Virus record (IMG/VR): IMGVR_UViG_3300035562_000069
Location: 5,781-69,780 of that record
Origin: a virus
Direction: 5' to 3' (one strand)
DNA: 64,000 nt
The notes beneath the pieces are model-generated. The model made no database searches. It saw nothing but the letters and a program-made list of their open reading frames with translations, and was not told the origin of the DNA. Shown piece after piece: positions 485 through 56,304 of this stretch. How positions within the stretch are numbered: the stretch's first letter is position 1; each line of letters begins with the position of its first letter. A program made the translations under genes and the position numbers.

Positions 485-3400
485 TCACTTATTAAAATAC
501 GGATTAACTCTCTCGACCGCCTGTTGCACCAGTTTATTTCGCTGAGCCATAAAGCGGTCAATCCTTTCCCTCTTCTGCTCGGCCGTCAGAATACGATCAA
601 TGCGCACCAGCTCAATCCGGTTATTCAACTGGCGGAGCTCTGTCTGCGTCGCCGTTAATCCTTTCCGTTGTGACAACTTATCCCTGTTTACCGCCTGCAG
701 CTCTTGAGCATCTTCAGTTCGCCCCTGCTTCCGATACGAATTAATGGTGCTTTGGATCTGATTTACCTGCGTCATCATCCGGTAGAAGTCTTCACTGAAC
801 TGAGTGGACTTCGCCGGGTCGTCACCATAACCACGCAACAGTGATTTAATCACCGGCATTTCGTCCAGTCGCATAGACGCGGTTTCACCATTATCCTGCA
901 TGCCACGCATCATGATATTAGTCGCCCCCATGACATATGCGCCCAGGCTGCCGGTGTACCCCTGAATGATGTGATCCAGCATCTTCGGTGACAGATTTGT
1001 AGCCTCACCGATTTCACGCATTAACAGGCTGGTCTGGTCGTTATATCTGGCCCCCGCAATCAGGTTACTGTCCGCCATGTTCTCGATCGGCCCACCCTTG
1101 AAGAAGTCATAATTCACATACGCTTCAGCGATCGGCATTGCTACCTGTGGGATTGGGTTAAAGGCCATTGTCTCCATGAAGTTGTGGGCCACCAGCTTGC
1201 CAAATTTACCAGCTGAATCTTGACCACCCATGGTGCGAACAAAACGCTCAGGCAGTGTGCCGAACATCAGACCAATTTCGAACGGTTTCGGCAAACGGAT
1301 GTGAATACCGCCGGGCAGCCAGGCATGCCAATAGGTGTCTTTATCCCAGTCTGGCAATTCCTCATAGCGTTTGTCGTCCCAGTTAAGCGCCAGGAGTGCC
1401 AGAGAGGCAGCGGTAATCATGCCGCCGCGCTTGAGAACCGATTTCGGATCTTCTTTAATCGCCCTGCCCAACTTACTCAGTCCCTGCATACGGGCGTTAA
1501 AGAACGGTAGCATGTCACTAAGGTTAATCATGATCTTGCTGGCACCCATCATGCTGAAGTCCATCAGGTCACGCGATTCAAACGCAGCCTGCGCCTTACC
1601 TTTGCCAGATTTAATAGCCGCCTCATAAGTGGCCAGGCGGTTGGCATTCTCCGCCGCTTCACTGAGGTGACGGTACTTTTCAAGCCCGGATCCCAATTTA
1701 TCCATGACATCCTTGCCACTTTTAACAATGGACGACTCGAACTCTTTGATCTGGCTGTCGGTATACCCTTTTCGGCGAAGCACGCCACGGATTGAACGCG
1801 CAGTCGATGCCGGATCATAAACGTTGGAATATCCGCCGCCAAACGTGGCGCCGGCGAACATCATGTCGATAAGGCTGTCATCAGTTTTAAGGGCTTTTTT
1901 GAACCCTGCGAAGGAATCAATACCGGCCTTAAACCCGTCTTTATTGATAGCCCACGAATGGAGCGAGTCACGCAGGAAGTTGCGGATGATGAAGTCCGGC
2001 ATGCTGGTTGTGCCAATCGTCAGCACCTTCTTCGCCTGGCGCGCTGCTTTCATGAATGCAGAGTTGCTGCGTTCAAGGTCGATCATTGTGAATGCACGGT
2101 AAAGCTCAGGGTCATTGACCTGCACCAGTTGCTCTTTGCCGTCAGTGAAAACCTTCACCACATCTTTTCCGATACGCTCAAAATCCATTTTCTTCGGGGA
2201 CTCGATCACCTCTAACATGCCAGTGTCAGCCAGGTTAACCACGGCACGACGCATCGCCTCGTTCTTCATCGAGGCATCCACTGACTTGGCCACGTAGTTG
2301 AACAGGTTCTCAATCGGATCCTTGATCGTCAGGTCGCTGCCTTTCAGTTTGCGGACGGTACTGCTTTGGTTAGCGATGCCCCGTGTACTCCACGGCCCTT
2401 TCACATCACCATTTTCCGCCTCACGGTAATATGGCAAGTACCAGGCACTTTCCCAGTTGGCTCGACTGTCCGGATCAATAAGGCCCATATCCTGCTGCAG
2501 ATCCAAAATCGACTTAATGAAGGTGTCATATTTTTTCTTCTGGGAGTCAAACAGCACCTCATTGCCCTTATTCAGCCCCTTCATATAGGCGATCTCGTCG
2601 GCCGTGAAGTTGTTTTCTTTCCCTTCGGCCATCAGTCGCTCAGACCGGTGGCCAGCAATCCACTTAAGGAAGTTTTCGCGATGATTACCCAGGGCGTCCA
2701 GAATGCCCATCAGCGCATCCTCTTTACCCGTTCCCGCCTGCCGCTCTACAACACCATCGGCTTTATTGTATTTGGGCAGGCCGTGCTCCAGAGTGGCCGC
2801 AGTGACTGAACCAGCACCGGCAGCCATGCGCGCCCCAATGTATGCTGATGATCGGGCATCTGATTTGCCAGCAGCGTCTTCCGCATACTTTAACGGCGCC
2901 ATACCGTCGAAGGTCTTGGTGTTTAATTTGCGGCCCATCTCCTGCAGCCAGCTTTTCAGCTCTGTTCTGTCCTTCGATTTCACCATGCCGTAAAAGTCTT
3001 TGGCCTTTTCGACCTTCCCTTTTTCGACGTTGAACCCCATTTTTCTGTTGGTGATCTCGTCCATGGTGGCTTCACCAGTACGGGAGTACAGCGCGGTGTT
3101 CTTGCGGATATCATCGGGAGAGAGTATATTTTTACTTGAGCCGCTAAGGGTGTTCGCCTCGGGCAATTGGAGCCCGACTGCATGAAGCCACTTAGCGGCT
3201 TTTCCATTATTCAGGTACAGCAGGTTGTTATCCAACTGACGCTGTAACGCTACGTTATTATCCTTCCCGTAAACGCTCGCAATCTTGTTGATCTCAGCAA
3301 ACCCTGCGCCCTTGCCATTGAGATGAATGGCTGCAATCACCGGGTTGCCGTAAACATCCTTGGCCTCAACCAACGATACAAGAGCATCCCCCTCGGTAGC

Positions 3401-6400
3401 AGATCGCATCACCGCGACCGGATCAGCAATGAGCTCAGGTAACCGCTGCATATCCTCCAATCTAACCTGGTGCGCGCGTACAGTTGGATCGGTCGCCTTG
3501 TGCACGACAGATGCTGGCATAACCATTTCCAGATTGCGGACACCAAGAGCCCGATATACTGCCGGAGTATCACCGAGACGCACCATGCCGCGAGGTGCAT
3601 TCTCCATTCCGGCGATATCCTCAACTTCAGCTGCGAAGTTCTTGGCGTCGTAGCTGTCAGGCTTAAACGGATCCTTCCTTCCAGATGCTGAGTAAAGGGC
3701 ATCGGTGCGGCTGAAAGTATCGTCAAACTCCCTGCTGCCTGGCTGCTCTCCTTCATACATTGCTGTACGTTTAAAGCGACCGGCAATGGAGTGCAGGATA
3801 TTGCGGATTTCCGACGGAGTGATATCCCCCGGGTTGAAGAAACCAGCATTACGCAAGGCATTGGTGATGATGGCAATAAGCCGATCCCATACATGGCCCA
3901 ATCCGGTTAATTCAGAACGCTCTGCCATGTGCGCCAGAAACTCATTCGCCTGGACTTCGGGCGACTCGTTGCCGTAGGCCTTTTGCACCTGACGCCAAAC
4001 AGACTGAATTTCCGGGTTCTTGCTATCACGCGTCTGGTGAAGTACGCGGATAATACGGTCATATTCCACATCCCCGATCACTGAGGCCAGGCCATGGTGT
4101 GCCAAAATCTCATGGCGCAACTTGGCGCGCAGCTGCTTGCCGTCGGCAATATTATCGGCAACCACAATCACGCGGCTGAGCTCGGGCTGGTAAATAGCGT
4201 GCACCGTACCAAATTCTTTCGGGATGCCATTCGGCATCATAGCCGCGGCGTCGGCCTGGGACTGAACAACCTGAACTTTGATTTTTGCCGCGCCATTGAA
4301 GCGGCGAACCCACTGGTCAGCAATGTGCTGAGCCTGTTTGTCCCCCATCCCCTTATCCGGTTTCGCCCCGGACGCATCAAAATTGCCCTCAGAAAGGATA
4401 TTGCCACCGCCAATATCAAGGCCATTTTTGGAATAGAAAGCCACGCCGCGATCTGTAGGCTTGGTTTTCAGCGTCTTGAACAAAGTATCGAAAGCATCGC
4501 GAACGCCATTATTCAGCTCTGCTTCTGTCGGATAAGCGTAGGTGTTCGGGTTGCCATGTTCATCCCCTTTTTTGAGGTTGACCAGGTAATCATTGCGGAT
4601 GCCTTTGGCCTCAGCCCGATCGAGGATATAGCGCTCATACGAACGAGCAGCCATTTCCACGTTGGTTGCCCAATAGGGTTTGCTGCGCAGCTCGTCCAGC
4701 CTCTGCGCGCGGGTAACCATGCCGCTATCGCCAACGGCTTTCATAACTCCCTTCCATGCATTCCAGACCTCTTGGCGCACAGGGAAATCAGCCGGCACCA
4801 TCTTCCCATCCTGGAACTTCATGGTCTGCCGGCGACGAACCGTAGCATAATTGTCGCCACGCCCACCGCCTACGTCAGCCTGACCGAAATAGTTGTCCAA
4901 TGCATGGAACCACTCATGCGCCAGCGAACCGGCACCATTATTTTTCGTCAGGTTAATCACCACCTCACCCGGCTCATAATGCGCCTTAACTGCATTAGAA
5001 CCGCCACGTCCGCGCGCGCCGAACGCAAGGCCGAGCTCGCCATTCAGAGAAATGGCTTTTGCCGGAACGCCGATAATGTCGGCCATGTCATGCAGGCTAT
5101 CAAAGGCATCGTTCAATTCTGCCTGGCGGCGACCCGACTCCACATAGTTTCCGAACTGTACCCCACGGAAACCGAATTCTTTATCGAACTGCGTTGGGGT
5201 AACGTCGGCGGTTCGCCTTTCGGCACCGGCTCGCGGGGCGTTGGTATCACGACGTTGCTCGGTACGTGCCTTATCGCGTTGCTTGGCTATTTGGCTTTCC
5301 AGTTCAGCGCGGTTCTCATTGAGATAATCTCGGGCTGCACGAGGATCCTTGAACCCTTCTTTTATTCTGGCTACCCCGCTAGCCCCTTTGTATCCGATAA
5401 AAATGTCCCGAGTGTATCGATCCGCGTGGATAGTGAAATTGGTTTGTTTGGATACTGGAGCGCCAGCACTTTGTTGATCAATGTACGCTCTCGCTTTATG
5501 CATAAAGTTGGCTTTATCCGTATCAGACACTCCGCCGACCGCTGCCCCTTTGGCTGTCTCCAGCTCATAGACCGATTTCCCCGGAGCCGGATACTCTTTG
5601 CCTTCGTACATAGAGTAATGCGAATGACGTACGCGATACTTTGCGGCCGCCGCCATCTGTTCTGGCGGTATTGAAGAAATCAGATCGTGCGTATCCAACA
5701 TGCCACGCAAATTCTTGCTATTGAAAATCTTTTCACGAACATCAGCGACACTGACCCTTCCATAAAGCAGATCTCCGGAAAGTCCCTTCATCGTCTGAGC
5801 AGATTCGACCCAGCGCTGAAGCAAACGTTTAGGTTTGGTCGGTGGGATCTGGGCTCTTAGCATGGAGAGCAATGCCAACTTGTCGCTGCTTACACCGTCA
5901 TCAGACATTTTTCTGTAATCAGGTTGAGGGAACAGCTTGGATAGGGGGTCAGTTCGATACTGCTCATCCGTAGCATCGCGCTCCATCGCCTCCGAGAACT
6001 TGCCCCACTTGTGCTTCGCTGCGCCTTCCAACTTCTGGCCGAAGTCGTCGATCTGGTCTTCATGACGCGTAGAACCATGGTCACTCCCTGTGTCTTCAAG
6101 TTCAGCGTTACCGCGCCAGTGCGGCCTTTTGGCACGATGTTCGTTGAGAACTGGGCTATATTGTGCACCATACATTCGCCGTTCCTCTGGCGTACCATGG
6201 GCAGCCCTAAAGATGCTCATCACATGCCCACCGGCACTATCATCAGCAAGCATCCGCTGTATCAGCTCAGCAGACTCGTCCTTTGTCAGTCCATTTTCTG
6301 TGGCCACTGTCTGTGGTTCTGCAGTTGGCGTTTTTTCTACCGGCATGCGTATAGCATATCCGCCCTCAACTTCTTCGATCTTGGCGCCGGGTGTTTTTCC

Positions 6401-8599
6401 CGAACGGGATGCCTGTGCCATACGTAATGTGGCGAAAGGTTTATCTCCAAAGAAGCGCAGCTCACCGACTGGTTCACCCTTGGCATAGGCTTCGGTCTGC
6501 GCATCAATGAGAACGCCACCAGTACGCTGTCGATTGTCCGGTAATCCTTGAGGCTGGTTATTGGCACCGATGCCTTCAGAGTATTCACGCAGGTTACGTT
6601 GATCACGTGTCTCTCCCCGGGTGAATGCTGGTGCTGACCCAGCTTGCACATCGTCGGTATTGGCTTCTGGCCCATTGGCGAAAATGATGTTCTTGTCAGT
6701 TATTGCATTGCTGGGGACAGTCTCACCATCATAGGTCTGGGAAGCTCGGCCAACTTCATTCCCCCGAGGATCCTCATCGCGCGGGATGAATTGCTGGCCC
6801 CTAACCTGCTCCCCTGCCCGGAACTGTGGCCCGGCGCCAACTTGCTCGTCATCAACATTCACGTTTGCCACTTCACCTGGCATGGCAATGACCGACGTTT
6901 TACCCGGAGATGGTAAGCGCGGCATAAGCGCTTCACGGATTTGATCTGCCCGCTCCTGCGCCGCCAGCTCTTCAGAGGTATAGCCCTGGTCACCTGACTC
7001 CATTTGCTGCTGGATTAACTCATCAGCCGTCGGCGATGGCTGTTGCTCCGCCAAGGCACGCTGCACGTCGTTATCTTCGGCAAAACCTTGAATGCGCGGA
7101 TCTTGGCGCAGATATGCTGGAGTGTCCCTGAACTCGTCGGCACGCGTTGGCGCAGCGCCGGCGACCTCTTCAGCGGCAAACGGACCATGTGCTGTTTGTG
7201 CCGGTTGCTCAGGCATCGACTCAGGATTATTGCCGGTGACCGGCTGCTGCTCTTCGGTGGCACCTTCAGCATTAACTGGTTGATTTTGTTGATCAACATT
7301 CTGCTGCTCAGGTGTTGATCGGCTACCGCGAAAACCGCCAACGGCACCGATGGTTCCCCCCATACCGGCACCAAGAACTGCATTACTTGCACCGGTGGTC
7401 ACAACATCCTTCATAGGATCGATTTTTTGCCCAGCAGTATCAATAAGCTGTTGGTTCTGGACATATCGCTGCCCAGCGCCCTGCGCAAATTCAGTAGAAC
7501 CTTCAGCCGCAGCCCCTATCAGGGCACCGGAAAGCACACCTGACGCGGCTCCTTTCTTTGTAAGCAAATTGAGAAGTGTATGATCGCCCAGCGTTGATGC
7601 CGCGATATTGATGGCCAGCATTTTAGGATCGGCTGTTACTGCGCTAGCCGCCTGATCTGCAATCTGATTCCTTGCTAGTGTGAGTTTTTCGCTGTCAGAA
7701 AGGGAGGCAGTAACAGGGTTCAAATCCACATTATCGAACGCTTTTTGAAAGGAAGGACTTTGCATTAAATCCGTAAAGGACAAGGTATTAATTTGTTCAC
7801 GCATATCAGTACCACCGCCACCTTGGGCGGTGGCTGCCATGGTGCCAACGAAAGCAGTTTTACCCGCAACAGAAGCAGCTCGCTCTGCAGTTTCTTTCGC
7901 AACCTGACGTGCCGCTTCCTCCGGAAGTTTTTTACTAATCCTATTAAAAATAGAGTTTTCGACAGCGTTTCTTGTCGCGACTGCTCCAAGCTTTGATACC
8001 GCCCCGCCAGCAAGTAATTGCGACACCGTAGGGATCGCATTCATCATCCAAGCATCTTTGTCGAAAAAGCCAGAACCTAAGCGATAATTCCCTTTTCCGT
8101 CTTGCTCAATGAAAGGCATCGCGGCGGCTGGTTTTGCCCCTTCACTGTACCCACTAGTAATTGCATCAGACATCGAACCAGCAAGTTTTCCTGCTGCATT
8201 TAAAGCTGCAGAGCCAGCATCAGATAATGGATTTCCTTCATTATCACGCATCACTTTTAGCATTGCAGGGTCAATGCCTAAATCAATTAGCGGTTTGCTC
8301 TCTCCAGAACGGTATCCAGAAGTTTTACGGTCAAGCATTTCATTGCCTGCATCAAAAATCTGAGCACCAGACCGAACCATCTCTAAAGGTGCTGAAACAG
8401 CAGAGCGAGCAATATCGCCGAGGCTAATACTCGGATCGGGAACCACAGATTTTCGGCCAGCGGCCTCGCGCGCTTTACGCACCTGATCCCAGTCGAAACC
8501 AGTGCTGCCAGTTTCACCTGGCTGCCGGATATTCAGCGATTCACGGTTGTTGTTTAATGCTTGTTCTTCAGGTCGCTGTTGTTGCGGATCATAGGCCAT
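485..8599 (-). CDS. 2704-aa giant virion/ejection polyvalent protein (933W/Phi24B giant-gene type) with LPD5-like, zincin HEWFH, LPD1-like, HEILAH metallopeptidase-like, MuF-C/PBECR-like and C-terminal LPD38-like regions
   Basis: Last gene of the ejection block; motifs IDDFGQKLEGA, FRGVQFGNY...GSLAHEWFHALD, YWATNVEMAARSYERY, LRHEILAHHGL, RLPELIADPVAVMRS...IASVYGKD, ELPDWDKDTYW...RLPKPFEIG. Confidence 0.85.
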   Translation of the reverse strand: MAYDPQQQRPEEQALNNNRESLNIRQPGETGSTGFDWDQVRKAREAAGRKSVVPDPSISLGDIARSAVSAPLEMVRSGAQIFDAGNEMLDRKTSGYRSGESKPLIDLGIDPAMLKVMRDNEGNPLSDAGSAALNAAGKLAGSMSDAITSGYSEGAKPAAAMPFIEQDGKGNYRLGSGFFDKDAWMMNAIPTVSQLLAGGAVSKLGAVATRNAVENSIFNRISKKLPEEAARQVAKETAERAASVAGKTAFVGTMAATAQGGGGTDMREQINTLSFTDLMQSPSFQKAFDNVDLNPVTASLSDSEKLTLARNQIADQAASAVTADPKMLAINIAASTLGDHTLLNLLTKKGAASGVLSGALIGAAAEGSTEFAQGAGQRYVQNQQLIDTAGQKIDPMKDVVTTGASNAVLGAGMGGTIGAVGGFRGSRSTPEQQNVDQQNQPVNAEGATEEQQPVTGNNPESMPEQPAQTAHGPFAAEEVAGAAPTRADEFRDTPAYLRQDPRIQGFAEDNDVQRALAEQQPSPTADELIQQQMESGDQGYTSEELAAQERADQIREALMPRLPSPGKTSVIAMPGEVANVNVDDEQVGAGPQFRAGEQVRGQQFIPRDEDPRGNEVGRASQTYDGETVPSNAITDKNIIFANGPEANTDDVQAGSAPAFTRGETRDQRNLREYSEGIGANNQPQGLPDNRQRTGGVLIDAQTEAYAKGEPVGELRFFGDKPFATLRMAQASRSGKTPGAKIEEVEGGYAIRMPVEKTPTAEPQTVATENGLTKDESAELIQRMLADDSAGGHVMSIFRAAHGTPEERRMYGAQYSPVLNEHRAKRPHWRGNAELEDTGSDHGSTRHEDQIDDFGQKLEGAAKHKWGKFSEAMERDATDEQYRTDPLSKLFPQPDYRKMSDDGVSSDKLALLSMLRAQIPPTKPKRLLQRWVESAQTMKGLSGDLLYGRVSVADVREKIFNSKNLRGMLDTHDLISSIPPEQMAAAAKYRVRHSHYSMYEGKEYPAPGKSVYELETAKGAAVGGVSDTDKANFMHKARAYIDQQSAGAPVSKQTNFTIHADRYTRDIFIGYKGASGVARIKEGFKDPRAARDYLNENRAELESQIAKQRDKARTEQRRDTNAPRAGAERRTADVTPTQFDKEFGFRGVQFGNYVESGRRQAELNDAFDSLHDMADIIGVPAKAISLNGELGLAFGARGRGGSNAVKAHYEPGEVVINLTKNNGAGSLAHEWFHALDNYFGQADVGGGRGDNYATVRRRQTMKFQDGKMVPADFPVRQEVWNAWKGVMKAVGDSGMVTRAQRLDELRSKPYWATNVEMAARSYERYILDRAEAKGIRNDYLVNLKKGDEHGNPNTYAYPTEAELNNGVRDAFDTLFKTLKTKPTDRGVAFYSKNGLDIGGGNILSEGNFDASGAKPDKGMGDKQAQHIADQWVRRFNGAAKIKVQVVQSQADAAAMMPNGIPKEFGTVHAIYQPELSRVIVVADNIADGKQLRAKLRHEILAHHGLASVIGDVEYDRIIRVLHQTRDSKNPEIQSVWRQVQKAYGNESPEVQANEFLAHMAERSELTGLGHVWDRLIAIITNALRNAGFFNPGDITPSEIRNILHSIAGRFKRTAMYEGEQPGSREFDDTFSRTDALYSASGRKDPFKPDSYDAKNFAAEVEDIAGMENAPRGMVRLGDTPAVYRALGVRNLEMVMPASVVHKATDPTVRAHQVRLEDMQRLPELIADPVAVMRSATEGDALVSLVEAKDVYGNPVIAAIHLNGKGAGFAEINKIASVYGKDNNVALQRQLDNNLLYLNNGKAAKWLHAVGLQLPEANTLSGSSKNILSPDDIRKNTALYSRTGEATMDEITNRKMGFNVEKGKVEKAKDFYGMVKSKDRTELKSWLQEMGRKLNTKTFDGMAPLKYAEDAAGKSDARSSAYIGARMAAGAGSVTAATLEHGLPKYNKADGVVERQAGTGKEDALMGILDALGNHRENFLKWIAGHRSERLMAEGKENNFTADEIAYMKGLNKGNEVLFDSQKKKYDTFIKSILDLQQDMGLIDPDSRANWESAWYLPYYREAENGDVKGPWSTRGIANQSSTVRKLKGSDLTIKDPIENLFNYVAKSVDASMKNEAMRRAVVNLADTGMLEVIESPKKMDFERIGKDVVKVFTDGKEQLVQVNDPELYRAFTMIDLERSNSAFMKAARQAKKVLTIGTTSMPDFIIRNFLRDSLHSWAINKDGFKAGIDSFAGFKKALKTDDSLIDMMFAGATFGGGYSNVYDPASTARSIRGVLRRKGYTDSQIKEFESSIVKSGKDVMDKLGSGLEKYRHLSEAAENANRLATYEAAIKSGKGKAQAAFESRDLMDFSMMGASKIMINLSDMLPFFNARMQGLSKLGRAIKEDPKSVLKRGGMITAASLALLALNWDDKRYEELPDWDKDTYWHAWLPGGIHIRLPKPFEIGLMFGTLPERFVRTMGGQDSAGKFGKLVAHNFMETMAFNPIPQVAMPIAEAYVNYDFFKGGPIENMADSNLIAGARYNDQTSLLMREIGEATNLSPKMLDHIIQGYTGSLGAYVMGATNIMMRGMQDNGETASMRLDEMPVIKSLLRGYGDDPAKSTQFSEDFYRMMTQVNQIQSTINSYRKQGRTEDAQELQAVNRDKLSQRKGLTATQTELRQLNNRIELVRIDRILTAEQKRERIDRFMAQRNKLVQQAVERVNPYFNK

Positions 8600-8695: not shown

Positions 8696-8721
8696 CTTTT
8701 TACTCACAAGGCATTTAGCTT

Positions 8722-8730
8722 TGTTATAAT
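8722..8730 (+). promoter_or_regulatory. Extended -10 promoter for the DUF4365-like moron
   Basis: TGtTATAAT 25 nt upstream of the ATG at 8756; back-to-back with cassette 1. Confidence 0.6.
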
Positions 8731-8755
8731 CAAATAAAAAGAAGGAACTTGGTAT

Positions 8756-10333
8756 ATGAATGCAAGAAACGTTGGAAAAATGGGTGAAAACGCCATTACT
8801 TATTGGTGTAGCCAACAAAATATTACAGCAACATCCCCTTCAGAGGATCGCCATGGATGGGATCTCTTGCTTGAATTTCCGAAGGAAACTCACAATACAA
8901 TCTCTGGGGATCAACACCCTCCTGCAATTGAATGTAAAGTACAGGTAAAATCCACAGATAAAAAAACAAACACTTGGGCAATTAAACTTTCCAACCTAGA
9001 AATGATGGTAAAATCCCCACTGCCGTCATTTTTATTATTCCTTCACTTTGAAAAAAGCATCTCGGTTAAAAATGCATATCTAGTTCACATAGACAAAAAT
9101 ATTGCCTCAAAAACTTTAGAAAGGTTAAGAAAACTGAGTGTTTTAGATAATAAGTATGACTTTCACAACCACACAATAACAATACCTTATGGTAACAAAC
9201 ATGAACTAGATACATTAGATGGTTCGGGTTTAAAGAAAAAAATAGAGTCTTACATCCTTAATTACAGTAATTATGCTTCAAAAAAGGAAAGACAAAATAG
9301 TGAGGTAGGCTACAATTCAACCAATAGCCATGGCTTCACTCTAGAGCTAACAGAGAAAGAACACAAAGAAGAATTAATAAATTTATTCTTAGGAGAGATC
9401 AAGGAAGCAAAAAACTTTAAAATGTCTATATTTAACAATAGATTTGGCATTAAGGAAATTACAGAGAATTTTGAATTTGGAACATGTAGACTTTCTTTAC
9501 CCGAACCATATAAAAAAGAAGAAACGTCTGAAATAACCATCATTCCAAATGACATCAAATCCAACACTCAAGCAATCCCTTGTACAATAATATTCCCACC
9601 ACCTTTAGTTAGCGTGAATAGTGAATTGTTTAAATTTAAGATTGAAACTAAGTTTTTCAATATAATAATGGCGCCTAACTCCGGCACATTCAATATAAAA
9701 CAGATAGTTAATTCAAATGAAAAGCATCAAATAAACGAGCTCTATGATGGATTAAAAGCTCTTGAAACCATGATATTCAAGCAAAAAAACTTCTCAATTA
9801 AATTGAAAACAAAAGATATGGAGCCTATTTTTTATCATAGTGGAAAAGTTAAATCAAAAAAAGGAACAGAAACTAAAAACATCACTATTGAAACTTTAGA
9901 TAATTTAATAAAATTATGTAATGACTTTAGGATAAACCACAAGGTAAAAATTAGCATTAATGAGTTAGACCATTTAACACAACCGATAAAAGAATTCTCA
10001 ATGATAAATACTAATTCCGAAGCCGCTATCAAAGCATCGTTTGAATTTGATAAAGCGTCAAACACCCCTATAAATAAAAATTTAGTTGGCATAGGTAGGA
10101 CAGGGTTTGTCTTTGACGGATATTTTATATATAAAATATTTTCAACTTCAGGCGTGGTGTCTAAAATTAAAAACTCTGGAACATTCTTAGCTAGAGGAAT
10201 TAAAATTGAATCCACGGAAATATTATCTTGTACTGAAAACGACCACGTTATTAAAATGAATGGGCACATTGATGACATTATAAAAAACTATGATAAAATA
10301 GGTAATGAGTGTTTATTATTGTATCCTAAATAG
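8756..10333 (+). CDS. AT-rich moron: N-terminal DUF4365-like PD-(D/E)xK nuclease plus uncharacterised C-terminal region
   Basis: EDRHGWDLLLEF...KVQVKST...PLPSFLLFL motif; opposite strand to late genes; own promoter and terminator. Confidence 0.7.
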   Translation: MNARNVGKMGENAITYWCSQQNITATSPSEDRHGWDLLLEFPKETHNTISGDQHPPAIECKVQVKSTDKKTNTWAIKLSNLEMMVKSPLPSFLLFLHFEKSISVKNAYLVHIDKNIASKTLERLRKLSVLDNKYDFHNHTITIPYGNKHELDTLDGSGLKKKIESYILNYSNYASKKERQNSEVGYNSTNSHGFTLELTEKEHKEELINLFLGEIKEAKNFKMSIFNNRFGIKEITENFEFGTCRLSLPEPYKKEETSEITIIPNDIKSNTQAIPCTIIFPPPLVSVNSELFKFKIETKFFNIIMAPNSGTFNIKQIVNSNEKHQINELYDGLKALETMIFKQKNFSIKLKTKDMEPIFYHSGKVKSKKGTETKNITIETLDNLIKLCNDFRINHKVKISINELDHLTQPIKEFSMINTNSEAAIKASFEFDKASNTPINKNLVGIGRTGFVFDGYFIYKIFSTSGVVSKIKNSGTFLARGIKIESTEILSCTENDHVIKMNGHIDDIIKNYDKIGNECLLLYPK

Positions 10334-10389
10334 CAATGGCTTATATAATATAAAACCAGCATTCTATTATTATGGACTAATGCCATGTG

Positions 10390-10440
10390 AAAAAACCACT
10401 AATGACCACAATGTTATGTGTTTGGTCATTAGTGATTTTT
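10390..10440. terminator. Bidirectional intrinsic terminator
   Basis: 12-bp stem CACTAATGACCA/TGGTCATTAGTG flanked by A- and T-runs, between convergent genes. Confidence 0.75.
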
Positions 10441-10463: not shown

Positions 10464-10625
10464 CTACTGTATTTCATTATATCGTTGTTCGATGTTCTTT
10501 AATAAAATCCATCCTAATAACGCAGTAGTTTGCACAGTCTCAATCTTTGTATCTTCATCGCAGTGTGTAAGTAAATCTAACAGCGCAGCTAAACTGGCTA
10601 ATGCATCTTCAATGTCCAATGTCAC
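10464..10625 (-). CDS. 53-aa SOS-regulated protein, candidate antirepressor
   Basis: GGGGAG RBS then GTG at 10625 (MTLDIEDALASLAALLDLL...); directly downstream of a LexA-boxed promoter. Confidence 0.65.
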   Translation of the reverse strand: MTLDIEDALASLAALLDLLTHCDEDTKIETVQTTALLGWILLKNIEQRYNEIQ

Positions 10626-10685
10626 AAAAATCTCCCCAGCAGAAGCCAAACATATCGATATGAATTAAAATGATTTTTATTAAAT

Positions 10686-10728
10686 AACTGTATGTATATA
10701 CAGTAGTATTTTATTACATACGTGTCAA
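10686..10728 (-). promoter_or_regulatory. Sigma70 promoter with overlapping LexA (SOS) box
   Basis: TTGACA-17bp-TACTGT; box TACTGTATATACATACAGTT (10686-10705) is 18/20 identical to the LexA consensus. Confidence 0.9.
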
Positions 10729-10850: not shown

Positions 10851-10885
10851 ATGCAAAAGCGCAGCGCAAAAATGCGCTTTTGCAT
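10851..10885. terminator. Hairpin insulating the SOS gene from the late operon
   Basis: 13-bp perfect stem ATGCAAAAGCGCA/TGCGCTTTTGCAT just after the 446-aa gene stop. Confidence 0.65.
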
Positions 10886-10895
10886 CACTTGATGC

Positions 10896-12236
10896 TTACT
10901 GTTGCTGTCGTTGTGCCTGCTGGCGCATCTCCCTCAGGTATCCCGCCGCATACGAATTCTCGGGTGGTTGTGCCGGTGCCTGGCCTTGAGGCGTTGCAGT
11001 AGTGGATGCCGCTGGCTGCCCACCTCCCTGCTTCTGGGATTTCCATTGTTGGTAGAATTGGATGTCTTGAGCATTCTTAGGATCCGGTGGTACTCCGTTC
11101 TCCTTTTGGTACTCTACAGAGAAATCTTCGAATGAATCAGTTGGTTTACCTGGCTGTCCGTAAGTCTGCAGCACCTGATTTTGCAACTGATCATATTGGT
11201 TATTGATTTCAGCCATTGCGTCTTTATCAGTCGCACCGGCCAATGCCTTAGCGCGGGCCTTGCCCACGTCGAGCAAATCGCGGCGCAAGCCGTTGGCCTC
11301 TTCACGGCTAGCAGTCTTATCCGGCGGGTTAACCATATTGTTGAGGAAGGCAGCGCGATCCGGTTGGTTAAGCTGGCCGACCATCTGACCATAGCCACGA
11401 ATTTCATCCATCATGCGTGATACCGGCATATGCGCGAGTTGATTATCACGCTCATCTGCGGAACCTAATTCAGTCATCGGCTTCTGAGCGGTGGATCCAT
11501 CGTCATACTTAACTGTTAAACCAGGAATGATGTATTTCCCATCCTCGCTTACGCCAATGTGGCCTAGTTCTTTGCTGACGATTTTCTTACCCGTCAGCGG
11601 ATCAACCTCACCCACGCCACGCTGAATATGTGGTGACAGCACAGTATTCATCAGCTTGATGACTTTCGGATCGTTGTAGTTCATCTCACCAGAGAGCACC
11701 TTCGGCATGACGCGGTTCACTTCCATCACGTTGTTGATCGCCTCCTGTCCAAAGAAGCGCCCTGGGTTAAGCGGGTTGTCTTTCGAAATCTGCGAGTACA
11801 GTTGCGGGTCGAATTTGCCCGTCTCCTCCATCTGTTTATAAAGCGTCTGAACCACCGGCATTTCATTCTGCAGACGCTGGCTGCGCTCTTCCTGCATCAT
11901 GCGATAATTGTATTCCTTCTGCCGCATGCCCAGTTCCTGCGCACGCATACCAAGGCCAGCGCGGCTGATCCCCACCTGTTGCTGATCGAGTGCATGGCGT
12001 AAGCCCCATTGTTTATCGCCCACTTGGTCGCGCTCTTTCTGATAACCAAAATTGCGCTGGTCGCGATCTTTGCCGTAATTAAAATCGGCTTCACGCAGAC
12101 TGTAGTTGCGATCGGAGTCCTTCACTTGCTGCTGCAGGGCCGCGTCGCGCTGCTGTAGTTCCTTGTTACGCGAGATAGCTGTATCAGCAGTATTGAAGCC
12201 AGCCAGGAAGCCATCCGCCAGACCTTGAACACCCAT
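10896..12236 (-). CDS. Internal virion/DNA ejection protein (446 aa)
   Basis: Position in ejection block; Q-rich coiled N-terminus; GLADGFLAGF start typical of ejection proteins. Confidence 0.65.
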   Translation of the reverse strand: MGVQGLADGFLAGFNTADTAISRNKELQQRDAALQQQVKDSDRNYSLREADFNYGKDRDQRNFGYQKERDQVGDKQWGLRHALDQQQVGISRAGLGMRAQELGMRQKEYNYRMMQEERSQRLQNEMPVVQTLYKQMEETGKFDPQLYSQISKDNPLNPGRFFGQEAINNVMEVNRVMPKVLSGEMNYNDPKVIKLMNTVLSPHIQRGVGEVDPLTGKKIVSKELGHIGVSEDGKYIIPGLTVKYDDGSTAQKPMTELGSADERDNQLAHMPVSRMMDEIRGYGQMVGQLNQPDRAAFLNNMVNPPDKTASREEANGLRRDLLDVGKARAKALAGATDKDAMAEINNQYDQLQNQVLQTYGQPGKPTDSFEDFSVEYQKENGVPPDPKNAQDIQFYQQWKSQKQGGGQPAASTTATPQGQAPAQPPENSYAAGYLREMRQQAQRQQQ

Positions 12237-12246
12237 GATTTACTCC

Positions 12247-12729
12247 TTAAAAAAGTTGGCTTGCCAATAGACCGACCGCCGCGCCAATACCCATACCGAT
12301 AGGGCCGCCCCATGCACCGGCTGTCGCACCTGTAGCTGCAGCAGTACCTGCCCCGGCAGCAACACCGGTTGCTGTTCCTGCGGCTGCTGCGCCACCAGCT
12401 GCTGCTGCCGTTCCTGCTGCTGCGGTACCGGCGGCGGCAGTGCCTGCGGCGGCTGTTCCGGCTGCCGCGCCTGCAGCTCCAGCCTCTGCGGCTCCCGCAG
12501 CTGATCCTGCAGCAGTACCCGCACCACTTCCCAGCAAAGAACTGCCCGACCCCATGGCCAGCCCCATACCAGCGCCGGTACCGGTCATCTGCATCTTCAT
12601 TTGCTTCTCAGCATCTTTCAGTTGCTGGTTTGCAACTTCACGCTGCGTTTCACGCGAGGACGCTTCACCAAATCCCTGCAACGCCTGCTGGCGCGTCTGG
12701 TTCGCGATATCCACTAATCCGTATCCCAT
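12247..12729 (-). CDS. Ala/Gly-rich internal virion protein with AAAGT repeats
   Basis: Low-complexity hydrophobic C-terminus ending WGGPIGMGIGAAVGLLASQLF, typical of pilot/ejection proteins. Confidence 0.65.
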   Translation of the reverse strand: MGYGLVDIANQTRQQALQGFGEASSRETQREVANQQLKDAEKQMKMQMTGTGAGMGLAMGSGSSLLGSGAGTAAGSAAGAAEAGAAGAAAGTAAAGTAAAGTAAAGTAAAAGGAAAAGTATGVAAGAGTAAATGATAGAWGGPIGMGIGAAVGLLASQLF

Positions 12730-13115
12730 TAGCTGCTACTCCCGCCGCCGATATTCATTTGTTGGCGGAGGCTGGCGCTGCCCCCCGTCAGAATATTCAT
12801 TTGCCGATCCGCTTCACCTTCTCGGATCCCGTTTTTGGCCCCGGCAGTTGCCAACGCAGACCTTAGTCCCAGGCTGTTGTCTCCTGTTGTTGGAGATTGC
12901 GCCACCCCGTAGCGTGCCATCTGGTTTTTCTGGCCGACCTGCGCCGTGTTCAGCGTCTGCTGCGTATTGGCATCAGCGCGGGATAGTTGGTCATTCATCA
13001 ATTGACCACTCGTCGCAAGCCCCATTAGCTCTTTCTGTTTCGGATAAAATCGGTTCTGCCAATCCGCGTACTGCTCCCGGATCAATCGGGCGTAGGTATC
13101 TGCTGCCTGTCCCAT
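12729..13115 (-). CDS. Putative internal virion protein (128 aa)
   Basis: Tightly coupled ORF in ejection block. Confidence 0.6.
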   Translation of the reverse strand: MGQAADTYARLIREQYADWQNRFYPKQKELMGLATSGQLMNDQLSRADANTQQTLNTAQVGQKNQMARYGVAQSPTTGDNSLGLRSALATAGAKNGIREGEADRQMNILTGGSASLRQQMNIGGGSSS

Positions 13116-13126
13116 ACGTACCCCTA

Positions 13127-13798
13127 TTAGTTAAAAGTCGATTTACCGAATGGCGTGTTTGACACACCGTATTGCCCGCTGCTTTTACCGCCACCAAATA
13201 CCCCGGTTGAACCGGCGCTTGCCGCTGGCGCAGCGGCATCCTGCAATCCATAGGTACGCACGGCGGCGCCACCCAATGCACCAGCGACTCCTGCCGTCGC
13301 TTGTCGGTTGCTCATTGATCGCTGCGCATCGGACTGTGCTTTTTGCATGCTGGTATTTGCGATGCTATTGAACCCAGACAAAGCATCGGCTTTCTGGCCG
13401 GCACCCATCGCAACGACATCCTGCAGGCCACCAACATACTTATCGGCCTGGGTACTCTGCGCGCGGTTAGTCGTGTCGATCTGGCCGGCAACCTGATCTG
13501 AAGTGATGTTGTCGAGCGTCCCCTGGAATTTGCCGCTGCTTGGATCCACGCCCCTGGCTGCCAACTGCGTGGCGGTATCCTGCCGCGCCTTACCGAACTC
13601 GGCCTGGTAGCCAAGGTTGGTATCATTAGCAATGTCCGCATACTTCTGCTCGTTGTTCAGCGCATCGACCTTATCCATAAACAGATTTTCATAAGGCCGG
13701 AGCTCGTTCTGATAAAGGTCCCATTGCTGCGAAGCCACCTGCGCCGCCGCCTTTTCATTCTCTGTTTCTTTGACTTCGTTACTGCCACCTTTGCCCAT
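13127..13798 (-). CDS. Putative internal virion protein (223 aa)
   Basis: MGKGGS... N-terminus and Gly/Ala-rich C-terminus typical of podovirus core proteins. Confidence 0.6.
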   Translation of the reverse strand: MGKGGSNEVKETENEKAAAQVASQQWDLYQNELRPYENLFMDKVDALNNEQKYADIANDTNLGYQAEFGKARQDTATQLAARGVDPSSGKFQGTLDNITSDQVAGQIDTTNRAQSTQADKYVGGLQDVVAMGAGQKADALSGFNSIANTSMQKAQSDAQRSMSNRQATAGVAGALGGAAVRTYGLQDAAAPAASAGSTGVFGGGKSSGQYGVSNTPFGKSTFN

Positions 13799-13805
13799 AC
13801 CACCC

Positions 13806-14174
13806 TCACACCGGGATCCGGAATTTCATTAATCCATCTTCATCAGGTAGGCGCACAAAACCGAGTCGCCTGGCTACTCTGATGAACCCTTTCCTGTCTG
13901 TGTAAAACTCTGCCCACCTGCCACCGATCATTCGTGTCAGGTCTTTAACGCGCGGGGTATACCGCAGCAGCCCATCGGTAGCAGTGCTTACGCCTAACCA
14001 CACGACGACATACGGAACACCGTCTTTCATCCGCGGACGCAAGACGATCCGGGCATCATCGGCACCAAAGCAAAACGCCTGCTTTTCACGGCAGGCGTCT
14101 TGAATTTCTGTTATCAAGTTTTTATCGGCGCTTCGCCTGGCAAGGGCATTCACCTTTTCTTCAAGCGTCATCAT
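13806..14174 (-). CDS. Small virion-assembly protein, possibly degenerate GNAT fold (T7 gp13-like position)
   Basis: Lies between tail and ejection genes; ends ARRLGFVRL, reminiscent of GNAT motif B. Confidence 0.45.
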   Translation of the reverse strand: MMTLEEKVNALARRSADKNLITEIQDACREKQAFCFGADDARIVLRPRMKDGVPYVVVWLGVSTATDGLLRYTPRVKDLTRMIGGRWAEFYTDRKGFIRVARRLGFVRLPDEDGLMKFRIPV

Positions 14175-15439
14175 TGCGGGCCGCTCGTGGCTATCTGTCG
14201 CCCGGATTTATAGACGCCAATTACCGGCTTGGCCCTTACTTCAGGGCTCCCGGTACTACCGCCACCACTGATCACTGGAGTGTAAATAGCGACACTGCTC
14301 CCCCTGTTCTCACCTATCCGGATGATTAACTGTTGCTGCTTATCACGTCCGACCGCTGGGAGCTGTATGCCCTCGAGCAAATAGATTAATGACCCGCTTT
14401 CCCCGTTATTCCCCGTGTCTTTGTAAGCAATTTGGATATCTTCATGGCCCGGGCTCCGCAGAATAACGGTGAAGTACTGTCTATCAGCGCTTGCAGCCAA
14501 AATCGTGACGTTTGTATCCATGACACGATCGAAATCCTCACCCACAATATTCCAAATCACATGATCTCCAGCCTCACTCGACCATGTGAAGCCATAGCGC
14601 ACACCTTGAGTGATGGGGGGCATAGATATCCCACCAGACTGCGCGTTATACACATCACCTACCAACTTATTGGCGTAGATTGTACCTCGGACATCGCAGT
14701 CCTCCAGGATCTGACAGTTCCTGAATGTGGCGCGCTCAGCGTATACGTCGTAGAACCACCCGCCATTAGCCGTCATAAAGTTCATGCTGGCATTGATGGC
14801 CGTCATGTTGCCGTTCTCATCGACCTTGAACCGACCATTCTCAATCCGAGCAGATCGCAACAGCGGAGTGATCATCTCAATACCGGCGATGACGCGGTCA
14901 GCAATCAGGTTTTGTGCTGCATCCGGATCGGTTTTCGCGAATGTGCCGGCAGTATCATTGAACGGCCCCGGTACGCCATTGGCGTTAACATGGCGGATCC
15001 AGTAGTAAGCACCTGGCGTGCCGGTATTCTGCGGATCGCTGAAGACGCCGGCGGCTTCAGTGCCCACGATTACTGCATCCGCAAGATTGTCCTCACTGTT
15101 GCGGTAGACTTCCGTCAGCGAGTGGCCGCCGTACTTCGGCATATCCCACACCAGCGCGATAAACGAGAACGCGCCATACGCCGTGAAGCCCGTTGGCTTA
15201 GTCGGGAACTGCGTCGGTTTGTTTGCTCCCGGCCCACCCCAGTCCGGCGGCGGCGTCCATCCAGGTATCAATGACACGCCACCGTTACCCGCTTTCTTGG
15301 TCGAGAAGCCGAGTCGAGCCAAATCACGCACAGTAACAGCACGATCAAGGCCATCGCCGCGCTGTCCGGTCAACGTCTGAATATTCTCTGCCACCGTCGG
15401 CAGATCCGTACCAGAACGAAACTTACCTTTATTGTTCAC
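14171..15439 (-). CDS. Tail tip/fibre protein (J-C-terminus/DUF1983-like region)
   Basis: FnIII-like segment (YYWIRHVNANGVPGPFN) and FKVDENGNMTAINA repeats. Confidence 0.6.
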   Translation of the reverse strand: MNNKGKFRSGTDLPTVAENIQTLTGQRGDGLDRAVTVRDLARLGFSTKKAGNGGVSLIPGWTPPPDWGGPGANKPTQFPTKPTGFTAYGAFSFIALVWDMPKYGGHSLTEVYRNSEDNLADAVIVGTEAAGVFSDPQNTGTPGAYYWIRHVNANGVPGPFNDTAGTFAKTDPDAAQNLIADRVIAGIEMITPLLRSARIENGRFKVDENGNMTAINASMNFMTANGGWFYDVYAERATFRNCQILEDCDVRGTIYANKLVGDVYNAQSGGISMPPITQGVRYGFTWSSEAGDHVIWNIVGEDFDRVMDTNVTILAASADRQYFTVILRSPGHEDIQIAYKDTGNNGESGSLIYLLEGIQLPAVGRDKQQQLIIRIGENRGSSVAIYTPVISGGGSTGSPEVRAKPVIGVYKSGRQIATSGPQ

Positions 15440-43466: not shown

Positions 43467-44108
43467 ATGACCAGTAGCCTTGGTGAGCGAGTCAGTAAAC
43501 GGCGAGCTGATTTGGAAATGTCTCAAGAAGAATTAGCCAAGAAAGCTGGCGTATCACGCGTTGCGATAAGCAAGGCTGAACTCGGCCTAACCAAAAATTT
43601 CAATGGCGATACCCTTTTCAACGTTGCTCGGGCGTTGCGATGCGATCCGGAGTGGCTTCAAACTGGTAAGGGCAATATTGAGGGACGTACCTCTAATATT
43701 GACCCTGAACCTCAATACACGCCCTATAGTCTCCCAGTTTTAAATTGGCAGTCAGTATTGGAGCAGATTGAGGGGGGCAATAAAAAAGCCGAACAATGCC
43801 TGGAAACAACCTTGAACGTAGGTAAAGATGCATTTTGGCTGAAAGTAGAAACCGATGCCATGACATCCCCTATCGGACTAACAATTCCTGAAGGAATGAT
43901 GATACTCGTTAATCCTACTGACAATTTAACTTCTGGTAATTTAGTTATATTTAAGAAATCCGGGACTCGCGAAATATTTTTCAGGAAGTATGTTGAAGAG
44001 GCTGGCGATCGTTACCTCAGACCACTAAACCAAAACTACTCAATGATTAAAATAGATGGGCAGTACATGCCTGTTGGGGTGGTTGTTGATGCGAAATGGA
44101 TTCTGTGA
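43467..44108 (+). CDS. cI: CI-like repressor (HTH plus S24 fold) with inactivated autoprotease
   Basis: HTH MSQEELAKKAGVSRVAISKAE; AFWLKVETDAM (Ser to Ala), IFFRKY (Lys to Arg), no Ala-Gly site. Confidence 0.9.
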   Translation: MTSSLGERVSKRRADLEMSQEELAKKAGVSRVAISKAELGLTKNFNGDTLFNVARALRCDPEWLQTGKGNIEGRTSNIDPEPQYTPYSLPVLNWQSVLEQIEGGNKKAEQCLETTLNVGKDAFWLKVETDAMTSPIGLTIPEGMMILVNPTDNLTSGNLVIFKKSGTREIFFRKYVEEAGDRYLRPLNQNYSMIKIDGQYMPVGVVVDAKWIL

Positions 44109-54556: not shown

Positions 54557-54599
54557 TTGCAACGTCTAAAACGGGATTATACTGTATATAAAAACAGTA
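54557..54599 (+). promoter_or_regulatory. umuDC promoter with LexA box
   Basis: TTGCAA-17-TACTGT; TACTGTATATAAAAACAGTA at 54580-54599. Confidence 0.92.
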
Positions 54600-54613
54600 T
54601 AGAGAAATGCACA

Positions 54614-55036
54614 ATGAAGCACTTTTTTCCAACACCAACACCCGAGAAACAACTCACTCCGCTTTACTCCGACAAAGTCCCTGCAGGCTTCCCCAGCCCT
54701 GCGCAAGACTACGTGCACGCGCGGATCGACCTCAACGAGTACTGCATAAGCCACCCTTCGGCAACTTACTTTCTGATCGCTTCAGGAGAAAGCATGATCG
54801 AAGCCGGGATCACCGACGGATCTATGCTGGTAGTCGATCGAAGCATTAGCGCCTGTCACGGCGATATCGTGATCGCCAGTATCGCAGGCGAGTTCACGGT
54901 TAAGCGGCTGTGCCTAAATCCTGTTGCACAGCTCGAGCCCATGAACCCGAAATTCAGCCCTATTCCTCTTCCAGACGGTGGCGAAGACCTGGATATCGTT
55001 GGGGTAGTCATTTCAACGATCACGAGGCTGAAATAA
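54614..55036 (+). CDS. umuD: Pol V subunit UmuD
   Basis: VPAGFPSPA cleavage site, GESM and FTVKRL catalytic residues intact. Confidence 0.95.
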
Positions 55037-56304
55037 TGTATGCCCTGGCCGATGTAAACAGCTTTTATGCAAGCTGCGAAACGCTGTGGCGTCCGGATCT
55101 ACGCGGACGCCCAGTGGTTGTTCTATCGAATAATGACGGCTGTGTAGTGGCGCGGAGTAAAGAAGCCAAGTTGTTGGGGCTCAAGATGGGAGAGCCTTAC
55201 TTCAAAATTAAACGGGACTTTGAGCGCGCCGGCGGCATAGCGTTCAGCAGTAATTACGAGTTGTACGCCGATATGTCGATGCGAGTGATGGCGGTGCTGG
55301 AAGAAATGGCACCTCGCGTCGAAATTTATTCAATTGACGAAAGTTTTCTCGATCTGACAGGCGTCCGTAACTGCATTGAACTTGAGAAGTTCGGCCGGCA
55401 GGTTCGTGCCAAAGTGTTGCGCGACACGGGGCTCACCGTGGGCGTGGGCATTGCCCAAACCAAGACACTCGCAAAACTGGCAAATTACGCTGCGAAAAAA
55501 TGGGATAAGACCGGCGGCGTGGTTGACCTTTCCAATCTGCAACGGCAGCGAAAATTGATGGCGCTAGTGCCGGTAGCAGAGATCTGGGGTATTGGTCGGC
55601 GGATATCGAAAAAACTGCAAGTCATGGGGATAGAAACTGCACTTCAGTTAGCAGATGCAAGCACCACAATGATCAGAAAGCATTTCAGTGTCGTGATTGA
55701 GCGCACGGTGCGAGAACTGCGTGGTGAACCCTGTTTGTCGCTCGAAGAATTTGCGCCGACGAAGCAGCAGATTATCTGCAGCCGCAGCTTCGGCGACCGC
55801 ATCACGGAGTATGACCAAATGCACCAGGCGATCTGCATGTATGCTTCCCGCGCGGCAGAGAAACTGCGCGAAGAGCGTCAATATTGCCGGTATATAAACA
55901 CTTGGGTTAAAACCAGCCCCTTCACTATCAATGAGGAATATTACGGCAACACGGCAAGCATCAAGCTCAGTACGCCCACGCAGGATACGCGAGATATCAT
56001 CGCTGCGGCTATTCGATGTCTGGATGCCATCTGGCAGACAGGATACCGATATCAGAAAGCCGGGGTCATGCTGCAGGATTTCTACTCGCAGGGCGTCGCC
56101 CAACTGAATCTTTTCGATGAGTATCAACCACGGCAGAACAGTGGACAACTAATGGCAGTTTTAGACCACATCAACAAGTCTGGCCGCGCGAAAGTATGGT
56201 TTGCTGGCCAGGGTAACCAACAAGCATGGTCAATGAAGCGGGAATTGCTTTCGCCAGCATACACAACGCGCGTGTCAGACCTTCCGCGCGCCCGCGTGTA
56301 CTGA
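55036..56304 (+). CDS. umuC: Y-family Pol V subunit UmuC
   Basis: [15 protein letters not shown]...VVLSNNDGC...YSIDE; TAATG coupling to umuD. Confidence 0.95.

Follow-up and report, generated by a model that had tools for sequence, protein, structure and literature searches.

A small gene behind a predicted LexA operator in a 933W-type virion module encodes a candidate antirepressor of a non-cleavable CI

The window considered here, that is, the whole 64,000-nucleotide stretch of DNA that was analysed, belongs to a 72.8-kb virus record from a soil metagenome and carries, inside its virion module, an isolated gene for a 53-residue protein that is probably the switch waking the prophage after DNA damage. 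This reading draws together the predicted LexA control of the gene, a CI repressor that appears to have lost the capacity for self-cleavage and the location of relatives of the gene in antirepressor-type places. The probability that the protein represents a new family of small antirepressors or induction triggers, wired in this prophage to the SOS response, can be put at about one half. The kind of system is already known. Its novelty lies in the family, in the placement of the gene within the virion module and in signs that a single effector has been wired to several different inputs.

In the mechanism proposed, LexA sitting on an operator that overlaps the −10 hexamer would keep the 53-aa gene off in the lysogen. 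DNA damage would activate RecA and lead to cleavage of LexA, upon which an acidic helical hairpin would be produced, would inactivate the self-cleavage-deficient CI and would open the lytic promoters. Antirepression by this protein would most likely be non-proteolytic. Binding of LexA to the box, SOS-induced synthesis of the protein and CI as its target are all elements that we infer.

Transcription unit of the 53-aa gene

The ORF lies on the reverse strand (10464..10625), with a GTG start at 10625 and a TAG stop at 10464. A GGGGAG ribosome-binding site (10632..10637, reverse strand), located 6 nt ahead of the GTG, is conserved in relatives; ATG alleles of the gene have GGAGG in place of GGGGAG and start at the same codon. 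The first residue is the same in relatives, in some of which it is encoded by ATG; this fixes the start and excludes an alternative reading of the ORF as a 61-aa protein beginning at a TTG. The putative promoter of the gene combines a −35 hexamer TTGACA (10723..10728) with a −10 hexamer TACTGT (10700..10705), both on the reverse strand and separated by a 17-nt spacer. An earlier note on this DNA had called the promoter perfect, which holds for TTGACA and for the spacing but not for TACTGT, which agrees with TATAAT at just 3/6 positions (T1, A2 and T6); a consensus promoter scan missed the promoter for this reason.

The −10 hexamer doubles as the left arm of a predicted LexA operator, TACTGTATATACATACAGTT (10686..10705, reverse strand), which matches the E. 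coli consensus at 18 of 20 positions and overlaps both the −10 and the probable start of transcription. The distance from the box to the GTG is 78 nt, and the transcription unit includes an AT-rich leader of ~65 nt ahead of GGGGAG. When up to three mismatches to the 20-mer consensus are allowed, two sites are found in the window and the same two in the whole 72.8-kb record, namely this box and one in the umuDC promoter (54580–54599), against a chance expectation of 0.00 from shuffles. On its 3′ side, the unit ends at a bidirectional intrinsic terminator (10390..10440; −28.6 kcal/mol, z = −6.1), formed by a stem and a U-run, which it shares with a convergent DUF4365-like cargo gene. Its upstream fence is a hairpin on the reverse strand (10851..10885; −20 kcal/mol, z = −2.5) that lacks a clean U-tract and lies 3′ of the stop of a 446-aa virion gene. 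The 53-aa unit is a self-contained transcription unit under predicted SOS (LexA) control. No RNA run was found to contain its sequence. It is situated inside the virion module, between the 446-aa phrog_601 gene (10896–12236) and a polyvalent gene of 2704 aa (485–8599), within a stretch of ~2.2 kb whose GC content is ~30%. These observations agree with the earlier description of an isolated gene within the virion module, with a GTG-started helical ORF behind GGGGAG, an 18/20 LexA box over its promoter and two fencing hairpins, both of which fold.

The predicted operator is retained, at its position, in independent Serratia-type prophages, in keeping with the LexA control that had been put forward. 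GTG alleles of the gene (L006, L007-9, L018, L019 and L021) preserve the TTGACA-17-TACTGT promoter together with a CTGT-N8-ACAG box 78 nt ahead of the start. The same promoter, TTGACA included, precedes the ATG allele of L017, where the CTGT and ACAG arms are fully intact and the box lies 67 nt ahead of the ATG. The box has one core mismatch in L001-5, and in L010-12 an IS3-type insertion, ~20 nt before the ribosome-binding site, stands in place of the LexA promoter. Remote homologues of the gene have no LexA box.

The record offers no rival candidate for an SOS trigger, as far as its sequence can tell: ANT, Bro-N, AntA and P22_AR_N domains are absent from the whole 72.8 kb, as is a third LexA box. 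The second LexA box (54580–54599) precedes a prophage umuD-umuC pair (54557–56304), and the same pair is found in G003, G004, G006 and the G001 remnant.

The CI repressor and the small-protein family

The proposed target is a CI repressor of 213 aa encoded on the forward strand (43467..44108), with HTH_3 and Peptidase_S24 domains according to Pfam. In an alignment of this CI with 29 relatives (A3), relatives at ≤59% identity read NWVQAG in the cleavage-site region, KGDSMT around the catalytic Ser and TFKKY around the catalytic Lys, and keep all three autocleavage features; the corresponding segments of the Serratia clade are NWQSVL, ETDAMT and FFRKY. The window CI has thus no Ala-Gly site, its catalytic Ser is replaced by Ala, and its catalytic Lys, which we take to be the equivalent of lambda K192 (counted from the lambda C-terminus), by Arg. 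The three losses are common to 11/11 Serratia-clade sequences, that is, the window CI and ten relatives at 70–97% identity. On this evidence the window CI is predicted to be non-cleavable, its autocleavage apparatus having been lost as the earlier note had held when it called the CI dead. The dead-CI lineage is stable and looks like a selected state rather than the product of decay.

Ser and Lys are both retained at 79 of 80 CI-related IMG/VR loci, as is, judged by inspection, the Ala-Gly; the record of the lone dead CI also carries the small gene. Viewed from the side of the small gene, CI has no Ala-Gly in any of the six complete records that carry it, and has also lost the Ser in four: three have a CI of the dead window type and one shows Ser replaced by Thr together with loss of the Ala-Gly. 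The CI of the remaining two retains Ser and Lys and has Ile-Val at the Ala-Gly position. A single co-fold of CI (A3) with the small protein (A2) scored 0.00, a value that counts neither way.

The 53-aa protein is acidic, with a net charge of about −7, and is modelled by AF2 as a two-helix hairpin (H5–21 and H24–52, mean pLDDT 86.6). Its core holds 8 acidic residues and 1 basic residue, and it looks soluble, with no hydrophobic membrane segment. A word-indexed search yielded 27 close clusters of 49–68 aa, mostly from Serratia and all unnamed; searching 1.84 billion representatives with a profile brought in 7 remote ones, for a total of about 35. Residues 1–42 are nearly invariant in the Serratia clade, and the last ~10 residues are hypervariable in both sequence and length. 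The gene evolves with dN/dS values of 0.04–0.16 at pairwise dS values from 0.3 up to saturation; low dN/dS accompanied by such abundant synonymous change indicates selection on the protein and excludes conservation at the DNA or RNA level. By this measure the ORF is a real protein gene under strong purifying selection.

The family is undescribed. We found no paper on it in the literature, and Pfam, PHROG and PADLOC assign the 53-aa protein and 17 family members to no family (Pfam and PHROG being searched at E values up to 1–10). The HMM check called for earlier, run with Pfam and PHROG, thus agrees with the statement that the protein bears no likeness to known antirepressors: it shows no sequence or profile similarity to characterised antirepressors, contains no ANT/KilAC, P22_AR_N, AntA or Bro-N domain and, in profile searches, has no resemblance to Kil, DicB, DinI, SulA or other known families. 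Foldseek comparison of the AF2 model with the PDB and BFVD retrieves nothing more specific than helical hairpins of a generic kind, the ExoVII small subunit among them, and every E value exceeds 0.6. Its ESM Atlas neighbours are unnamed clusters; ‘Derepression' appears at rank 70 with a score of 0.79, a mere lead. A tblastn search of 50,697 phage records with the 53-aa protein gave no match, and blastn and tblastn searches of cultured phages and E. coli genomes gave nothing for its gene. The small gene is rare: within the bacterial family that contains genome G001, it occurs in 4 of the 401 species genomes sampled.

Genomic settings of the homologues and comparison with known systems

In Serratia-type prophages, the small gene always lies 3′ of the 446-aa gene and is followed by variable AT-rich cargo and then by the LPD5/LPD1/MuF_C/LPD38 giant gene. 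The two virion genes are directly joined, without a small gene, in the 933W-type phages of E. coli and Shigella. Degraded prophage remnants adjoining copCD-yebY (L010-L012, upstream of 5001 and 1809, and L046 at G001:C1:780000-799000) have an intact small gene and no CI, and the copies in the CI-less remnants of G001 have intact LexA boxes as well.

Small antirepressors that are repressed by LexA and have their genes at a distance from the immunity region are established in Gifsy, 186 and N15 phages, and some of the Gifsy antirepressors also act on non-cognate repressors (PMC3121763). Like Gifsy GfoA, GftA and GfhA, 186 Tum and N15 AntC, the 53-aa product is a small protein encoded by its own LexA unit with a hairpin ahead, far from the immunity region of a prophage whose repressor, here judged by its sequence, is not cleaved on SOS. 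The cross-acting antirepressors of Gifsy would also fit the near-invariant core of the protein. However, the 53-aa unit has no dinI or irsA companion, its product is shorter (53 aa) and shares no detectable similarity with these antirepressors, and it is embedded in the virion module of a lambdoid, podovirus-like phage of the 933W type.

Four lineages (L033, L036, L040 and L043) have a homologue placed after ant genes in Arc/Mnt-type operons resembling immI. In L033, L036 and L040 it closes a divergent Arc/Mnt-type operon and lies just 5′ of the giant gene. The stop codon that it overlaps belongs to a KilA-N+ANT or P22_AR_N antirepressor gene in L033 and L036 and to a 65-aa ORF located 3′ of the antirepressor gene in L040; in L043 the overlap is with an ANT-domain remnant (E = 1.4e-22). 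These homologues are predicted to be translationally coupled to the ant genes. In P22 immI, the mnt-arc-ant region lies beside ejection-protein genes. The remote homologues similarly close Arc/Mnt-controlled ant operons just before an ejection-type giant gene, and the 53-aa unit of the window fills the same slot of the virion module. P22 is not known to have a small gene after ant. Unlike in P22 immI, arc, mnt and ant are all absent from the window, which has just the small gene under LexA.

Other homologues are counter-oriented to regulator genes. The partner is a LuxR-type receptor gene (Autoind_bind+GerE), at a prophage end, in L035 and an HTH_31 gene for an XRE-type regulator in L037-39, and in L020 the small gene faces an 87-aa ORF with no Pfam match. 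L035, L037-39 and possibly L020 thus have the counter-oriented layout of TF-smORF modules (Silpe et al. 2023); the window does not, its regulator being host LexA. The 51–60-aa products of TF-smORF modules inactivate cI without proteolysis; the characterised ones all target cI, and the published smORFs are not mutually homologous (PMC10432266). The 53-aa protein resembles the products of these modules, and of VqmA-Qtip in plasmid-like phages of Vibrio and Aeromonas, in its similar size and in having no known domains. [quoted passage not shown] Comparison of the small protein (A2) with the 53-aa ORF opposite xre-luxR of phiARM81ld gives an hhalign probability of 0.1 and no homology.

Satellite-like islands provide a further setting. 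Two species genomes contain an island (L042, G332:C1:1354300-1374299; L044, G132:C13:21000-40999) with an integrase, AlpA, AntA, a primase of the Zn-ribbon/Toprim/DUF927 type and a small-gene homologue (hhalign 98.2%), in the order 61–71-aa ORF, small gene, ~220-aa ORF, primase. Three virion genes of the window, those for the 160-aa and 446-aa proteins and the giant one, also have homologues in both islands, which possibly parasitise helper phages of the 933W type. The gene order of P4 is epsilon-orf151-alpha, with epsilon two genes ahead of the primase. Like epsilon, the derepression protein of that satellite, the homologue of L042 and L044 stands two genes before the primase; unlike in P4, the primase is of another type, and hmmscan finds no match to PF25738 (P4 epsilon, Derepression) in 17 family members. 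A satellite of this kind would need from its small protein the derepression of a helper prophage, as with P4 epsilon. All four settings of the family are sites where phages or satellites keep repressor-inactivating proteins.

A second small ORF of 61–71 aa lies directly 5′ of the small gene in L040 (5820–6017), L042 (10143–10328) and L044 (10092–10307). These ORFs are alike among themselves, the window has no equivalent, and the similarity of those of L040 and L042 to the small-gene family is not significant (hhalign E 0.1–0.4).

Target of the small protein and implications

The proposal of the earlier note that the 53-aa gene is the SOS trigger of the prophage is partly supported, in that the gene is real, its LexA box is kept, CI is dead and no other candidate is at hand. 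What does not fit is the idea of an antirepressor dedicated to one repressor: residues 8–42 are almost identical across prophages with three CI types of ~25–35% mutual identity (two of them being those of G004/G006 and of G005), alleles of the small protein show no covariation with CI across the three types, and the protein also occurs in prophage remnants that have no CI. Near-identical proteins facing three CI types point either to a generalist or to another, conserved target that is not CI. P22 Ant is a precedent for a generalist antirepressor. Tentatively, the ~45-residue acidic hairpin could be a generalist inactivator of CI-type repressors that has been rewired to host LexA in Serratia prophages with a CI deficient in autocleavage, and elsewhere to a LuxR quorum-sensing receptor, to XRE-type regulators or to Arc/Mnt superinfection circuits plus Ant, and that satellites have captured to derepress 933W-type helpers; we consider this extended version possible rather than probable.

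The other branch, which we hold to be rather unlikely, is that of a small effector, induced by SOS here and by quorum sensing, transcription factors or superinfection elsewhere, directed not at CI but at a conserved target in the host or a general one. Cell division, RecA/LexA activity or a protease would be possible targets, and the effector would ready the cell for lytic growth beside the true switch. Such an effector would account for a core that is near-invariant despite very different CIs and that persists in CI-less remnants. It would also suit the four lineages that co-transcribe the homologue with a full-size Ant already able to antirepress, where the small protein may act otherwise, and an acidic helical hairpin could mimic nucleic acid or a binding helix, as DinI does. 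However, a non-CI effector leaves no visible path from SOS to a non-cleavable CI, it departs from the cI targeting common to all characterised TF-smORF products (PMC10432266), and the protein bears no likeness to the Kil, DicB, DinI and SulA families or others that are known.

A giant polyvalent gene is found near the small gene in most contexts, which could hint at a different partner. The protein might assist the giant polyvalent ejection protein, whether as a chaperone, as an inhibitor or as an immunity factor, or it might regulate the adjacent defence-like cargo. The gene stands just 5′ of the giant gene or its cargo in the window, L006, L007, L010, L017-L021, L033 and L040, the satellite-like islands that have the homologue also hold giant-gene homologues, and the C-terminal tail of the small protein switches along with the cargo. 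Yet L035 and the satellite operons place the homologue apart from any giant gene, L020 and L040 have no cargo, and the E. coli and Shigella 933W-type phages hold the giant gene without the small one, which makes a function linked to either the giant gene or the cargo less likely. The core of the protein also stays constant whereas the cargo differs from lineage to lineage, and a LexA promoter and a terminator of its own set the gene apart from the late operon. An accessory function is accordingly judged improbable. An SOS-induced toxin or abortive-infection peptide, the alternative raised by the earlier note, is very improbable: enterobacteria do have small genes under LexA control, among them tisB, dinQ and hokE, and the gene sits within an AT-rich moron beside defence-like genes, but its product is a strongly acidic, soluble-looking hairpin without a hydrophobic membrane segment, and neither an antitoxin gene nor a partnering antisense RNA is evident; the gene also shares operons with ant genes and is intact in remnants.

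If the antirepressor reading is true, a so far unannotated family of small proteins acquires a name and a function, and it becomes clear how a lineage of lambdoid prophages of the 933W type still senses DNA damage although its CI is catalytically dead. A single effector would then tie together LexA-controlled antirepressors, TF-smORF modules and immI ant operons, the input of the prophage switch being exchangeable and its output protein retained. The presence of a generalist antirepressor in remnants and satellites would bear on cross-induction in polylysogens, and predictors of SOS dependence that use CI cleavability alone would misclassify such phages.

The virion module that surrounds the small gene (485–8599 and 10896–15439) is of the 933W/Stx-phage type. 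Its 446-aa protein is 31–34% identical to proteins of Stx-converting phages over ~280 residues, and in those phages nothing is inserted between the homologue of the 446-aa gene and the adjoining LPD5 giant gene. The interval from the small gene to the giant gene is a cargo hotspot (8700–10440 in the window; also L006, L007, L010 and L017-L021), with cargo absent from L020 and L040. Antisense regulation of the convergent cargo by the small gene was rejected as a possibility, given that the orientation and content of the cargo vary and that some members have none. The window carries a DUF4365-like 525-aa protein in this interval; other lineages have DUF4062, DUF4145, an MBL-fold protein with an LmuA/Avs1a-like N-terminus, a KAP-NTPase/PDC-S49-like protein or a three-gene set, and the content differs in almost every lineage. 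The switching of the small-protein tail with the cargo looks as if an exchange junction lay at about codon 43.
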